Of a DNA stretch of 64,000 nt, positions 537 through 52,574 are shown in pieces (the first letter of the stretch is position 1; each line of letters opens with the position of its first letter). The position numbers were made by a program, and so were the translations under genes. Below the pieces are notes generated by a model. The model was not told the origin of the DNA. It did no database searches and saw only the letters and a program-made list of their open reading frames with translations. Source of the DNA: a virus (Duplodnaviria; Caudoviricetes); IMG/VR virus record IMGVR_UViG_3300020011_000226, positions 1 through 64,000 of that record. One strand, written 5' to 3'.

Positions 537-602
537 TGTACAGATGGGTGCTGTACATAATACGTACATAATCTACTGATTTGAGTGTACTGAATCAGTA
601 CA
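537..602. repeat. GTAC(A)-core repeat cluster next to att; candidate integrase arm-type sites
   Basis: TGTACA at 537, GTACATAAT direct repeat at 553 and 564, palindrome TGTACTGA-a-TCAGTACA at 586-602. Confidence 0.5.
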
Positions 603-689
603 TAGAGGTGTGGTCTCTGGGATGGATGTATATAATAAATTTTGTCTGTTGCATATTGATTTTGTTTTTAGGATGAAATGTTCTGATTG

Positions 690-48447: not shown

Positions 48448-49290
48448 TCAAGCTGTTGCTGAGAGATTGTACCTTCTGTCATAGAGCTGTTCAAACTGTT
48501 CCTTATTATCAGATATTGACATTATCGCAGTAACTTCACTGATAATTCTTCTGAGGTCTTGCCTGCCAACACTTTCAGTTAGATTTCTGTGGAGCTGGTA
48601 CTTCCAGTTGCCACTGTCATTCTTACCAGTCTTCTCCTTCATGGCTTGAAATACCCCGTCAGGAAGCCTGTCATAGATAAGGTGGGCTGTCAGATAGCCT
48701 ACTCTCAGAGGCTTGGAATGGCCTTCTCTAGGCTGAATATTGTATATGCGGTACAATTCCCTGTAGAATTCATCGCTGAATGTCAGCTGCCATTTGGCTA
48801 CCTCATCGGAAATATACGCTGATAGAATCTTCTGAAGTTCCCCCTTGTCCCTATCCTCCTGATAGCCTGTGGCTTCATCAATGAGTGCTACCAGTCCAAG
48901 CTTGGCAAAAGATCGCATCAATATCTCACACTGGTCTGCCACCAATTGTTGTTTTGGTTTCAGCGTAAAATTCTTCCTGATTTCCAGCATAGCATCACAG
49001 ATGTCCGTCAGGGCTTCTGCCTTGTAGCAATATACTTTTCTGTCTCCTTGCCAGCATACTATAGGAACCAATGCTCCTGATGGAATTTGTGTGGCGGCAT
49101 TGCCCAGTGCCTTTTGCTTGAAGAACTGGTTGATCTTGGTTCCAGCCCTGTTACCTTTGGTAATCTTTAGGGCCTCCTGCATTTTACTTCCTGAGAGAAG
49201 TCTTGTACCATCTTCTGTTACATAACATGGAATGACATTACCTGCCAGATTGAGTTCGCCACTGTTTTTAATTCGATTGAAATTTTCCAT
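48448..49290 (-). CDS. P63C-domain protein (phage regulator / antirepressor-like)
   Basis: IPCYVTEDGTRLLS...LGLVALIDEATGYQ..R...LQKIL..YI...WQLTFSDEFY signature. Confidence 0.8.
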   Translation of the reverse strand: MENFNRIKNSGELNLAGNVIPCYVTEDGTRLLSGSKMQEALKITKGNRAGTKINQFFKQKALGNAATQIPSGALVPIVCWQGDRKVYCYKAEALTDICDAMLEIRKNFTLKPKQQLVADQCEILMRSFAKLGLVALIDEATGYQEDRDKGELQKILSAYISDEVAKWQLTFSDEFYRELYRIYNIQPREGHSKPLRVGYLTAHLIYDRLPDGVFQAMKEKTGKNDSGNWKYQLHRNLTESVGRQDLRRIISEVTAIMSISDNKEQFEQLYDRRYNLSATA

Positions 49291-49485
49291 AATTTTAAAT
49301 GTTTAATTATTGAGTTATGTAAAAAATGTCGCATGCCTAACTATCAGAGGTTTAGATAGTTACGTTGGAATTTATAGTAAAAATACCTCAAAAACACCCT
49401 AAAACTGGTAATTTTTGTCGCACATTTGCTAACTGATTGATTACCAGATATTTATATAAAAAGTAAAAGAGGCTACATAGCCTCC

Positions 49486-50061
49486 CTATTTCTTCATCTT
49501 TTTCCTTCTGCCCTTTGTTGTTATTTGGTTGTAGTATTGTTCTTCTAGCTCATTAGTCCATGTTGAAGGAGATTTCTTTTTAGTCTTTGGTTTGGGTTTT
49601 GGTAATTCTTTCTTCCTCTTTTTATATTCACTTCTGGCCATCTTGTCACAGATTTCATTCCAGACATTTCCATCATGACCCTTAACCCACTCAAAACTGA
49701 CTTGAATGTTCTTGGTGTTACATATGTCCCAGTACCTTCTTATTTGGTCAAGGTTCTCAGTTGCTGTCCATCTTCCCGTAAGTACATTAATGCTATACTG
49801 GGAGTCCGAATAGATTCTAACAGATGAGTCCTGAGGAAGAGAGTTTACTATACTCATGATTGCCAACAATTCCATTCTGTTATTGGAAGTTCCAACAAAG
49901 CCTTTAGAAGCTCTTTTCACTTCTTGGTTATTGGAGTCAAAGATAATATAAGCTGCTCCTCCTGGTCTTTGGGGATTGAGGTTGTCACAGCTTCCATCAG
50001 AGAAAGCTATGAACTTTTGGGTTTCTTTCATAGGTTGTTTTTGGGTTTTACTTTTTACCAT
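49486..50061 (-). CDS. rnhA: Ribonuclease HI
   Basis: FSDGSC, GGAAY, SNNRMELLA, YSDSQY, N.D, WVKGH.G..WNEICD.MA motifs. Confidence 0.9.
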   Translation of the reverse strand: MVKSKTQKQPMKETQKFIAFSDGSCDNLNPQRPGGAAYIIFDSNNQEVKRASKGFVGTSNNRMELLAIMSIVNSLPQDSSVRIYSDSQYSINVLTGRWTATENLDQIRRYWDICNTKNIQVSFEWVKGHDGNVWNEICDKMARSEYKKRKKELPKPKPKTKKKSPSTWTNELEEQYYNQITTKGRRKKMKK

Positions 50062-50076
50062 TTAAATCATACCATG

Positions 50077-50823
50077 TTAGTATGAGATAGCCTGAGAGAT
50101 AGAAGATGAGAGGGTGTAGGTGTTTGGATGTACTATACAGAGCTTGTGGTTAGTGGTAAATGTGAAGCCTGGGATGTCCCTGTGATTGACATGGGGAGCA
50201 TAGAACCATTCAAAATGCTGTTCTTTTTCTACCCAAGCTTTAGTTACTGCAAATTCTACCACCCGTTGCACTGTTCTGATACAGCACCCAACCTCTTTTG
50301 CTATCTTCTCCAAACTTAATCCCAGCTCTTTATACTGTTGATCTGCACTTTTCAGTCTACCCTGTTCAACTAAATCCTTCACTTTCCGTCGCACAGTCCT
50401 AAACTCCTTGGGAGAATTTGGATTGTGTCTGGCCTGAAGCAAGTGTTTTAGGTAATCTTTATTGTGCTGTATTCTCATGAATATAAATGACTGTACTGAC
50501 CTGTACGCTGAGAAAAATGTACTGAAATCCATCTCATCTATTCTGATATTCCGATTAGTAGTATGAGATGATACCTTATTAATAATAAGCACTCTGTCCT
50601 TAGGTGCTCCCTCAAAGTGGGCGAACCCATATTTCAGCAGCCAGTCCTCATATCTCTGAGCTGTCTTGTGTGATATTCCAGTTATCTGACACAGTTTGTT
50701 TGTACTGTAGTGATGAATCCTTGAGGATTTCAGTTTGTCTTTTAGCATGAGAGTCAGCGCAAGGCACTTTTGAAGCACCCTGTCCTGCCTAATCTGCGTT
50801 ATATACCTTCTCCTCAAATTCAT
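50077..50823 (-). CDS. Double-HTH basic protein, putative replication initiator (Rep-like)
   Basis: Two HTH-like segments (STNKLCQITGISHKTAQRY; SLEKIAKEVGCCIRTVQR) and C-terminal PNTY; function is inferred. Confidence 0.5.
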   Translation of the reverse strand: MNLRRRYITQIRQDRVLQKCLALTLMLKDKLKSSRIHHYSTNKLCQITGISHKTAQRYEDWLLKYGFAHFEGAPKDRVLIINKVSSHTTNRNIRIDEMDFSTFFSAYRSVQSFIFMRIQHNKDYLKHLLQARHNPNSPKEFRTVRRKVKDLVEQGRLKSADQQYKELGLSLEKIAKEVGCCIRTVQRVVEFAVTKAWVEKEQHFEWFYAPHVNHRDIPGFTFTTNHKLCIVHPNTYTLSSSISQAISY

Positions 50824-50874
50824 AGTACAAAATGTTATCCTGATAATTGTTATCCTGTCAAAAGTACTGGCAAT

Positions 50875-51046
50875 AAAAAGCCAGTAGAGGGAAAAATCCC
50901 TGTAACCATATTGTGAGACTGGGCTACAGGGCTATCCTTCTACTGGACTATATTGTTGGAATTTCTTCCTTCAACTTCTATGTCTGTGCAATCAGTCTCA
51001 CCTGGATTACTGATGCAAAGGTACACATTTATATCTAATTGACAAA
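50875..51046 (-). promoter_or_regulatory. Leftward promoter plus structured leader with terminator (attenuator-like) ahead of the Rep-like gene
   Basis: -33 TTTG 51046-51043 and -7 TACCTTTG 51023-51016; long stem 50881-50946 plus U-run; loop 9-mer complementary to leader 50993-51001. Confidence 0.65.
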
Positions 51047-51134
51047 CAAAATTTTGGAATATTTTGCTCGAGGAAAAGTTAAAGTTTGTTTATATATTGA
51101 TAACTGTTTTGTTTTCAAAAAGTTATGGTTTTTC

Positions 51135-51382
51135 TTTGGTAGACTGAAAAGTTTTCAATACCTTTGCAGGTGAATTGGAAAGCGTTTAGCTCTATCCTGC
51201 ATTGATGAATCTGGACAATCCATCTACTTGCACAGGGTATTGAGGGACGCTCTCCTCTTGGTAGGACTATACTTTGGTATAAGAATATCAGGAGAGTGAG
51301 CTATACTTTTACCTGAAAGCAAGTGGCAGTCCAGAGCCAAATCAATGGCAGGTAAAAGCGGAAAAAGACTCACTCTCTTTTT
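51135..51382 (+). promoter_or_regulatory. Rightward promoter plus structured leader with terminator and alternative pairing
   Basis: -33 TTTG 51135-51138 and -7 TACCTTTG 51159-51166; stems GAGAGTGAG/CTCACTCTC and CTTTTACCTG/CAGGTAAAAG plus T5; 51196-51239 complementary to 51310-51352. Confidence 0.65.
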
Positions 51383-51424
51383 GTGTGTCTATGCTTCCTG
51401 AAGTAATAACTAAAAACTAAAACA

Positions 51425-52252
51425 ATGAAAACAATTAAAGAATGGGCCGAGTACTATAAGTGTAAAGGAATATGGGTATTCCCATTTAATCAAAGTAGTT
51501 TCAGTTGGAATGATTGGCGGGGCAAATCACAGGAAACGTATCAAAAGGAGTTTGATTCCTACAATTGGAAAGATGCCGAAAAGTTGTTAATGGTAGCTGG
51601 GGGTACTAAAAGAAAGGCTGTATTTGTCATTAACAACCTGAAAGACAAGAATATAAACTATGTCTATCGGCTTCTAAAGGCCGCATTATCTGAACTTGGA
51701 TTACCTTCTGGCTATCCTTGGGTTGTTTGGGATAAAAGTATTTTAGGCATTATTGTAGACATATTCCCCGATGTTCAAGGAAAAGCTTTTGAGATTCATG
51801 CCAAAAGAGTGTCTATCATCTGGGAGAAATCTTTTACTGTACCATCCCCTAACTCTAAAATAGATTTCTGGAGTGGCCGTAGGCCTGAAACTAGACCAGA
51901 GCAGGTTGATAGTGGCAGACTAATAGAGGTTGCTAAGAGTTTTCACGAAAAGTATATTGAAGCGAAAGTACATAAGAAAGAAAACATGGCAGAAGTTTCT
52001 GACAAGATAAATAAAGGAGGTGAGTCGTATTTTGAGAAGACTTCATACTGGTATCTAAATAAACTCTTAGGCTTGGTTGGTTTAATAGGGATAATATGCT
52101 ACCTATTCTCCTATTACTATGGCATGACAGATATATTTAACATGGCAACTGTAGGATATTTTATAGGTCTAATACTTATAGTTGTCTTTGTAGTTATGGG
52201 AATAATAAAGATGGTAAGAGGCATAATCAACAAAAAGAATGGTCATATTTAA
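51425..52252 (+). CDS. Degenerate Prim-Pol-like N-terminal domain fused to two C-terminal TM helices
   Basis: AEYY..KGIWVFP....W.DW...MVAG pattern; two hydrophobic helices at the C-terminus. Confidence 0.5.
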   Translation: MKTIKEWAEYYKCKGIWVFPFNQSSFSWNDWRGKSQETYQKEFDSYNWKDAEKLLMVAGGTKRKAVFVINNLKDKNINYVYRLLKAALSELGLPSGYPWVVWDKSILGIIVDIFPDVQGKAFEIHAKRVSIIWEKSFTVPSPNSKIDFWSGRRPETRPEQVDSGRLIEVAKSFHEKYIEAKVHKKENMAEVSDKINKGGESYFEKTSYWYLNKLLGLVGLIGIICYLFSYYYGMTDIFNMATVGYFIGLILIVVFVVMGIIKMVRGIINKKNGHI

Positions 52253-52574
52253 AGAATTACGTAGGTACGAAAAGCGTATAGAAGAAAAGAATAAAAATCG
52301 TAATTGGAGTAATAGAGATTATTTTGCCCGCCAAGAATTGTCAGAAGAAGAGAAAAGCAGATATGTAGAAAGACAGAGCAATATATCTGTTCCTAAAAAA
52401 TCAACAGCAATACAATTACTGTGGCAGAACATGTTATACACAGTAGGGTGCATGGGGCAAGTTGCATTTGTTCTTACTTCCATCGTTTTAATTGTATTGG
52501 TAGGTAGTTATCTGACAAAAGGATGTAGTTCTTATACTGATACTGACCATGTCCATTTTGAAAGATACAAGTAG
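52239..52574 (+). CDS. Single-pass membrane protein
   Basis: Charged N-terminus, TM helix near the C-terminus; overlaps the previous gene. Confidence 0.6.
   Translation: MVIFKELRRYEKRIEEKNKNRNWSNRDYFARQELSEEEKSRYVERQSNISVPKKSTAIQLLWQNMLYTVGCMGQVAFVLTSIVLIVLVGSYLTKGCSSYTDTDHVHFERYK

Follow-up and report, generated by a model that had tools for sequence, protein, structure and literature searches.

A predicted kissing-loop leader RNA ahead of replication-type genes in Bacteroidota phages, probably a cis-acting transcription attenuator

In the countertranscript attenuation of plasmid rep genes (pT181, pIP501, and pAMbeta1, and likewise Anti-Q of pCF10), a 5' preemptor segment competes with a terminator. 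The CI RNA of phage P4 and its C4-type relatives act in the leaders of operons for replication or for an antirepressor, are made from the same strand that they control, and have boxes that differ between heteroimmune relatives; P4 CI is the precedent for an RNA that is made from the very leader it controls. Another leader, cATTpLS20 of the Bacillus subtilis plasmid pLS20, is a zipper-type attenuator that has been studied experimentally (Gonzalez-Alvarez et al., NAR 2026, PMC13401043). Its antiterminator forms by default, its alternative folds are of similar energy, and its authors propose that a protein or a countertranscript provides the input (PMC13401043). Finally, in the guanidine-IV (mepA) riboswitch, a kiss between the loops of the first hairpin and the terminator hairpin favors read-through (PMC11611296). 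Here we describe a phage leader that we think is probably, though by no means certainly, a cis-acting transcription attenuator of the kissing-loop or zipper type, in the 5' leader of a replication-type operon.

We analyzed the first 64 kb (the window) of an IMG/VR record that is 117.5 kb long and classed as a provirus. The record encodes a tyrosine integrase, and we take the source phage to be a temperate crAss-like phage. An initial annotation of the window had described a promoter, a 9-mer near the 5' end of the transcript, a terminator-type hairpin whose loop is complementary to that 9-mer, and a T-run, and we found all of these on the minus strand (Table 1). The 9-mer (hereafter the 5' box) does lie near the 5' end, with one correction: it is part of the loop of a conserved hairpin, P1.

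Table 1. Features of the leader and the genes behind it, numbered along the 64-kb window.
Feature	Position	Strand	Details
Bacteroidota-type promoter	51046-51016	minus	-33 TTTG at 51046-51043, 19-nt spacer, -7 box TACCTTTG at 51023-51016
P1, 5' hairpin	51010-50988	minus	Stem GTAATC/GATTGC with a conserved U.G pair; 11-nt loop with the 5' box
5' box, GTGAGACTG	51001-50993	minus	Within the P1 loop
P2, small middle hairpin	50975-50952	minus	GGAA/TTCC core; apex of the antiterminator-like fold; predicted by folding
P3, long terminator-type hairpin	50946-50881	minus	Lower stem, 50946-50935 with 50892-50881; upper stem, 50931-50922 with 50907-50898
Complement of the 5' box in the apical loop of P3, CAGTCTCAC	50921-50913	minus	
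T5 tract	50879-50875	minus	Directly after P3; expected 3' end of the terminated RNA
Post-terminator repeat, CCAGTAC	50870-50864	minus	Predicted partner of the 3' base of P3 in read-through RNA
Second -7-like box, TACTTTTG	50866-50859	minus	Overlaps the CCAGTAC repeat region
Two 13-nt direct repeats	50857-50830	minus	Just upstream of the start codon
Putatively gated gene, 248-aa protein	50823-50077	minus	Two winged-helix DNA-binding domains; 52 nt from T5 to the start codon
RNase H gene	50061-49486	minus	Next in the transcription unit of the two-winged-helix gene; PF00075, E = 1.7e-25; phrog_531

All 10 relatives have a TAnnTTTG box ahead of the RNA, and in 8 of the 10 a -33 TTTG can be read from the sequence at 19-20 nt from the -7 box. 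(The consensus for Bacteroidota promoters was reportedly described by Bayley, Rocha and Smith in 2000.) P3 in the window has a 21-pair stem and is followed by the T5 tract; the hairpin region has a folding energy of -43.4 kcal/mol, with a z score of -3.7 relative to dinucleotide shuffles. A simple terminator scan skipped P3 because its loop is longer than 8 nt. Across lineages the loops of P3 are 14-38 nt, which is large for terminators. If transcripts end at the T-run, the terminated RNA is expected to be about 137-141 nt long. P2 has just 4-8 pairs, and its core covaries (GGAA/TTCC in the window, CAGG/CCTG in L002, and GCGG/CCGC in L003; relatives are labeled as in Table 2). The stretches that follow P1 (TGCAaaGACATA) and precede P3 are conserved and unpaired. 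The top of P3 is approximately the reverse complement of the whole of P1: in constrained folding, the two strands of P1 pair with opposite upper arms of P3 (5' strand with 3' arm, 3' strand with 5' arm), and the box pairs with the loop between those arms. Past the terminator, a 17-mer (TTGCCAGTACTTTTGAC) that contains the second -7-like box is identical in the window and in L002, and in L002 and L031 the repeat likewise tracks the base of P3. We considered a leader peptide and rejected it: the only ORF that begins with ATG starts in the loop of P3, and this start is not conserved (it is ACG in L003).

The general features of an attenuator appear to be present, namely a promoter-proximal leader, a hairpin with a U-tract, and an upstream pairing that would be mutually exclusive with that hairpin. 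Judged by analogy, cATTpLS20 is the nearest studied relative in logic. Each leader heads an operon of a mobile element and has competing folds that are similar in energy, and in each the apex of the antiterminator is a middle hairpin. However, there is no sequence relation, and cATTpLS20 is found in Gram-positive plasmids rather than in phages of Bacteroidota. The central stem-loop of cATTpLS20 (ext-SL-3) is long, imperfect, and extended by its flanks, whereas P2 is short. Also, the contact in our leader would begin as a lineage-variable kiss of 6-9 bp, and P1 mirrors the top of the terminator over its full length. As for pT181-type systems, they share with this leader a contact at a hairpin loop that decides (or, here, would decide) whether transcription terminates ahead of a replication gene or reads through into it, but they need an antisense promoter on the opposite strand. 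No -7 box is conserved on the reverse strand of our leaders (there is a chance match in 1 of the 10), which rules out the classical countertranscript design.

The initial annotation had likened the leader to P4 CI RNA and P1 c4 RNA. There is a likeness to P4 CI and to the C4-type RNAs of P1, P7, and N15, in that short complementary boxes lie in a leader and are associated with premature termination. Membership in that family is not borne out, though. C4-type RNAs have a C4 covariance model, and their target boxes lie outside the RNA (seqA and seqC; a1 and b1); here we found no such boxes in the 117.5 kb, and the pairing is within one short RNA. When we compared positions 49500-52500 to Rfam 15 with cmscan, at E values of up to 10, there was no credible match, and none to the C4/CI family. 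What did turn up were three matches, at the level of chance, to unrelated families from eukaryotes (mir-4524 on both strands, with E = 0.054 and 0.48, and HOXB13-AS1_2, with E = 1.5), and these were far below the gathering scores. The divergent leader, at Rfam E values of up to 10, also gave only chance-level matches to unrelated families. In the guanidine-IV riboswitch, the kiss is ligand-dependent and the loop nucleotides are conserved, whereas here the loops vary and Rfam has no match. Membership in the cATTpLS20, guanidine-IV, or P4 CI/C4 families is not supported; what would be shared is the principle of a terminator/antiterminator attenuator. We also considered a ring RNA like the pRNA of phi29, with self-complementary loops, and rejected it, as this is a replication module in a terminase-type phage and Rfam has no match. 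A search of the literature turned up nothing relevant on a described leader RNA from a crAss-phage.

The genes behind the leader look like replication genes, as the initial annotation had it: the two-winged-helix gene is followed by the RNase H gene and then by a gene for a P63C-domain protein. Calling the first of these genes "Rep-like" is another matter. The 248-aa protein has weak matches to HTH families in Pfam, its AF2 model has a pLDDT of 92.6, and its single domains resemble MarR-type winged helices (wHTH; VIA, Z of 6-7), which agrees with a fold of two winged-helix DNA-binding domains. The whole protein matches RepE54 and Rep-DUE weakly (Foldseek, E of 0.02-0.04 and TM of 0.27-0.30), and its neighbors in the Atlas are phage proteins with HTH_36 or HTH_24. 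The DNA-binding fold stands, while the resemblance to RepE-type or HTH_36 proteins is weak and is a lead only. Going by the models, "Rep-like" seems to be a reasonable label rather than a demonstrated function. Near the gene, the only candidates for iteron-type repeats are the two 13-nt repeats, which are also a possible operator, to judge by their position. On the opposite strand, a promoter with the same -7 box (51159-51168) lies ahead of a gene for a 275-aa protein whose nearest Atlas clusters are Prim-Pol primases (score 0.90-0.91); we treat its identification as a Prim-Pol primase as a lead only. The setting is a replication-type module with divergent promoters. Homologs of the 248-aa protein fall into 38 clusters at 55-70% identity, all of them metagenomic, and the start codon of the gene is kept in 21 homologs. 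Three homologs have mis-called N-terminal extensions that translate the 3' arm of the hairpin, which implies that the leader is conserved at the level of DNA.

Most of our understanding of the leader comes from its relatives, which we obtained in three ways. One metagenome scan gave L002 to L006. A broader protein alignment, run on IMG/VR, gave L024 to L027, of which the leaders of L024 to L026 were used. A DNA pattern based on the P1 hairpin, also run on IMG/VR, gave L031 (with an identical copy, L102), L072, and L046. The leaders of L003, L004, and L006 are identical as well. The P1 loop of L046 does not complement the loop of P3 but is similar to the 5' arm of that hairpin, and it is doubtful that this leader belongs to the same type of RNA. 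Other searches yielded no relatives. Neither blastn with the region nor tblastn with the 248-aa protein gave a match among GenBank phages; searches of IMG/VR with the protein from the window or with a first, narrower alignment found no relatives; and neither did a protein scan of genome contigs. The DNA pattern scan of genome contigs and the scan of IMG/VR with the 17-mer gave chance-level matches only (L104 to L124 and L007 to L023, respectively). A covariance model of the RNA recovers its training set and L072 only. That model found no second copy in the window (1-64000) or in the IMG/VR records of L024, L025, L026, L031, and L046, and a scan of the whole 117.5-kb genome with the P1 pattern found this copy only. 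The stretch at 49290-49486, ahead of the P63C gene, also contains no such element. The same type of RNA is also present in phage records that have direct terminal repeats and no signs of integration.

Each of nine lineages has, within 4-16 nt past its TAnnTTTG box, a short segment whose complement lies in the loop that caps the large hairpin (Table 2). For the window taken alone, the match of the 9-mer is only mildly unlikely: when the leader is shuffled, an exact 9-nt complementarity of its first 35 nt to the remainder arises with p of about 0.012, and the pair of 9-mers has one further occurrence in the 117.5-kb genome, which is the chance level and is inside a giant ORF. For the lineages together, the Fisher-combined shuffle p is 2e-5. 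We also compared all nine 5' regions to all nine leader bodies. The sum for the cognate pairs was reached in none of 100,000 permutations (p < 1e-5), and the outcome was the same for match length and for duplex energy; non-cognate pairs of box and body are much weaker than cognate ones.

Table 2. Complementarity between the 5' box and the apical loop of the large hairpin in nine lineages.
Lineage	5' box	Loop	Pairing
Window	GTGAGACTG	CAGTCTCAC	9 bp
L002	GTGGAGT	ACTCCAC	7 bp
L003 (= L004, L006)	GTAGCGC	GCGCTAC	7 bp
L031 (= L102)	AGTGACTC	GAGTCACT	8 bp
L072	GTAGGAGC	GCTCCTAC	8 bp
L024	GGGCTGG	CCAGCCC	7 bp
L025	GTGGAACA	TGTTCCAC	8 bp
L026	ATAGGA(c)TCT	AGA(c)TCCTAT	10 positions, 1 mismatch
L005	18-nt segment	18-nt segment	18 bp with a 5-nt bulge

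Four of the sequences can be aligned, and we used these to study covariation. With the long-range helix included in the structure, 96.8% of the cells are paired and 14 pairs have changed on both sides, which was reached in 0 of 500 shuffles; in slid controls on the same four sequences, about 40-47% of the cells are paired. The long-range helix itself is 100% paired, and 5 of its 7 pairs are compensatory. The P1 helix is also 100% paired and has one compensatory pair (A-U becomes G-C in L002), while the two helices of P3 have 8 pairs that changed on both sides. The U.G pair in P1 is present in all four sequences, and there are several G.U pairs in the lower stem of P3. The covariation that the initial annotation's pairing should leave behind is thus there to be seen: across the nine lineages, the pairing is kept with different letters. 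These comparisons show that the box-loop pairing is real and under selection, and the leader RNA is a real, covarying, uncatalogued structured RNA. Because the 5' box sits in the loop of P1, the contact would be a loop-loop kiss between P1 and P3.

The duplex between the 5' region and P3 reaches past the loop into the upper arm, with a dG of -27 to -32. This extended duplex has p of about 0.01-0.02 in each of seven lineages and is reached in 0 of 300 shuffles in L005, but it is not significant in L026 (p = 0.73). The extension into the arm has no common register across lineages and is less well supported than the loop-loop contact.

What would the two pairings do during transcription? We folded growing prefixes of the RNA and also folded with constraints; minimum free energy (MFE) folding cannot model a pseudoknot or a kiss. 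P1 and P2 are the first hairpins to form. At the point where the loop of P3 is complete, the MFE structure in all nine lineages is the long-range helix between box and loop, with P1 melted and P2 at the apex. The multiloop closed by this helix contains the lower 5' arm of P3 as well. When the 3' arm of P3 is added, the structure flips to P1 + P2 + P3 in 7 of 9 lineages. The other two, L024 and L025, remain in the long-range fold, and these two do not have a T-run directly after the kissing hairpin. For the terminated RNA of the window, the terminator fold is at -46.8 and the antiterminator fold is at -40.1. For a 192-nt read-through RNA, the two are nearly isoenergetic (-53.1 for the antiterminator fold versus -51.7 for the terminator fold), and pairing of the 3' base of P3 with CCAGTAC tips the balance slightly toward the open fold. 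The energy of the loop-loop duplex is -11 to -17 kcal/mol, and at that strength the kiss probably locks the short RNA in its free form. The kiss might also help the oversized loop of the terminator to close, that is, stabilize the terminator.

The sequences and their folding show the pairing, how the parts are ordered, and the alternative folds; from these we infer termination and read-through as follows. Host RNA polymerase would start a few bases past the -7 box, and P1 would form at the extreme 5' end of the transcript. Once the 5' arm and the loop of P3 have left the polymerase, the loop of P1 would nucleate on the loop of P3, and P1 would then unzip along the upper 5' arm of P3 to form an antiterminator-like helix that is capped by P2; both of these steps are suggested by the folding. 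As the 3' arm of P3 emerges, it would have to displace this helix. If it does, P3 would be completed, transcription would stop at the T-run, and an RNA of about 140 nt would be released, in which P1 and P3 could then kiss. Transcripts that escape would continue into the two-winged-helix gene and the RNase H gene, and in the window, pairing of CCAGTAC with the 3' base of P3 would lock these transcripts in the open fold. The deciding step would be a contest between the antiterminator derived from P1 and the 3' arm of P3, and the balance would be set by whatever keeps P1 closed or blocks the contact between the loops. Candidate inputs are a protein that binds the conserved stem of P1, a polymerase that is modified or moves at a different speed, or terminated RNA present as free copies.

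Is the gene really behind this gate? The T-run lies directly after the hairpin in 7 of 9 lineages (all except L024 and L025). In L003 and L026, the T-run ends just 5-7 nt before the start codon, and in L003, L026, and L072 there is no room for another promoter. A second -7 box is absent from 8 of the 10 leaders. Because the T-run abuts the start codon and there is no second -7 box, the gene would be reachable only by reading through P3, at least in those phages. The exceptions are the window and L002, which carry the second -7-like box past the terminator. In that clade, this box may give the gene a promoter of its own, and the upstream unit may be a free-standing small RNA gene. And in L031, no ORF of at least 70 aa starts within about 400 nt downstream, and the RNA may stand alone. 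The initial annotation had left the choice between a cis-acting switch and a trans-acting RNA, and it is the former that gains from the alternative folds, the T-run at the start codon in L003 and L026, and the covariation.

The trans-acting RNA deserves more discussion. The idea is that, in the manner of P4 CI, the ~140-nt RNA builds up and confers immunity or controls copy number: the loop of its P3 (or of its P1) would pair with cognate nascent leaders, whether these belong to the same phage or to a superinfecting one, and force termination ahead of the replication genes. In effect it would be an "antisense" RNA that is encoded on the sense strand, and it would act by blocking the contact of the cis antiterminator, which means that it can coexist with a cis-acting attenuator. 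Each lineage has its own matched box and loop, with much weaker non-cognate pairing, and this is the pattern of specificity determinants. Furthermore, with no antisense promoter, an RNA regulator must come from the same strand, and a temperate phage (the genome is classed as a provirus and has an integrase) with replication-related genes behind the leader is a plausible place for it. On the other hand, the sole partner of the box in the 117.5-kb genome lies in the same RNA, which kinetically favors pairing in cis. The kissing helix varies no faster than the ordinary stems of P3 (in the four-sequence alignment), which gives no sign of diversifying selection. The phages with direct terminal repeats and without signs of integration have the same type of RNA, Rfam has no C4/CI match, and the loops of the free RNA can pair with each other, which would mask both. 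We think that a trans-acting RNA of this kind is possible but unlikely, and we are more doubtful still about the specific proposal that the terminated leader is itself the immunity or copy-control factor, a "self-antisense" RNA that brings about cognate termination in trans. If it were, then the replication genes would be silent in the lysogen and only homo-immune phages would be excluded, without a protein repressor at this switch.

The hairpin might also be a constitutive promoter-proximal terminator, or the leader might be a stable small RNA, with the kiss serving to compact or protect the RNA or to strengthen a terminator with an oversized loop. The gene would then be reached from a separate promoter or with the aid of a protein antiterminator, in the manner of the PR' - 6S RNA - tR' arrangement of phage lambda, with Q. 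The large loops of P3 fit this explanation, in that a kiss would pre-organize them, and so do the energy of the loop-loop duplex, the second -7-like box that the window and L002 carry past the terminator, and the fact that no gene lies directly downstream in L031. But P1 mirrors the top of P3 almost fully, beyond the loop, and a long-range helix is predicted to form before the 3' arm in all nine lineages, which exceeds what a stabilizing kiss would need. The lack of space for another promoter in L003, L026, and L072 also argues against it. It strikes us as distinctly doubtful.

It seems very improbable that the leader is a riboswitch of the guanidine-IV type, with a small-molecule ligand that would stabilize the kiss between the aptamer and the terminator hairpin. 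The layout is the same, with two hairpins, loop-loop contact, and a terminator (PMC11611296), and the conserved unpaired stretches after P1 and before P3 could be of interest in this respect. However, our leader has no match in Rfam, and the genes that it would gate are phage replication genes rather than transporters or metabolic genes. In riboswitches, the loops that bind the ligand are conserved. Here, the kissing nucleotides differ in every lineage. We give almost no credence to a function at the level of DNA, either as an inverted repeat bound by a protein or as a cruciform at a replication origin: the region does lie between divergent promoters of replication-type genes, and the downstream protein is a DNA binder, but the conserved G.U pairs (the U.G pair in P1 in 4 of 4 sequences, and those in the lower stem of P3) would turn into C.A mismatches in a transcript of the opposite strand, and therefore point to an RNA structure on the sense strand and not to a repeat in the DNA; also, the length of the pairing varies from 6 to 18, with a bulge in L005, the paired parts keep complementarity only and no sequence motif, and the promoter is at a fixed distance in all lineages.

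We return to the cis-acting attenuator and what it would mean. The crAss-like phages are among the most abundant viruses of the gut, their temperate members are rare, and how they time or silence their replication is almost uncharted. A covarying RNA gate ahead of replication-type genes offers a concrete and mutable handle on this control. The element is absent from Rfam, and its lock-and-key pair is well suited to clean compensatory mutation. To our knowledge, classical Shine-Dalgarno and leader-peptide mechanisms are scarce in Bacteroidota. Unrelated phages of Bacteroidota have the same design at the start of early or replication operons: L072, where it precedes a replisome-organizer gene, and L005, L024 to L026, and L031. 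It may be a general class of attenuator in this phylum. And if the short RNA also acts in trans, then it would be a case of RNA-based immunity outside of the P4/P1 group.

The same type of leader RNA as in the window occurs in L072, an unrelated and smaller phage contig, where it lies beside a gene for a Lin1244_N protein (a replisome organiser). It follows that the element moves with replication modules rather than with the two-winged-helix gene as such. The leader of L003 is the most compact among the relatives, its T-run lying right against the ATG, and the serine recombinase upstream of it suggests that L003 is another integrating element. A variant form is seen in L046, a doubtful member; the phage it comes from is 83 kb long and has direct terminal repeats. 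The variant's P1 loop is not complementary to the loop of the long hairpin that follows it but similar to that hairpin's 5' arm, so it would compete for the 3' arm.

Features in and around the leader RNAs of the window and its relatives
Feature	Location	Strand	Remarks
Two 13-nt direct repeats	window 50830-50857	-	CAGGATAACAatt / CAGGATAACAttt; spaced 15 nt apart
17-mer 3' of terminator	window 50859-50875; L002 about 592-608		TTGCCAGTACTTTTGAC; identical in both
Divergent promoter and leader	window 51159-51425	+	promoter TACCTTTGCA
Long hairpin and T5 ending plus-strand leader	window about 51292-51390	+	immediately 5' of 275-aa gene
Leader RNA type	L072:9672-10894		between SSB/recombination block and Lin1244_N gene
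Compact leader; serine recombinase (Resolvase domain)	L003:11-778		recombinase a few genes upstream of leader
Variant leader	L046:1210-1375		canonical promoter and P1 hairpin present

Three database homologues of the two-winged-helix protein encoded at window 50077-50823 (P0009, P0018, and P0020) have N-termini that are 40-60 residues longer. These extensions are artefacts of gene calling, in which the reading frame was carried across the leader hairpin; all 21 aligned homologues keep the true start, M-K/N-L-R-R. In P0018 and P0020 the wrongly called N-termini also imply the 17-mer, which carries a -7-like box, TACTTTTG, as well as CCAGTAC, a repeat of the 5' base of P3. The 13-nt direct repeats adjoin the upstream side of the start codon of the two-winged-helix gene and may be an autoregulatory operator.

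The divergent promoter has its own leader of 257 nt, whose fold is very strong (dG -80.4, z -3.9). For the 275-aa gene that follows, the nearest Atlas clusters are Prim-Pol primases, which we treat as a lead only. Given the strong fold and the terminal hairpin with its T5, attenuator control appears to operate on both sides of this divergent replication-type region.
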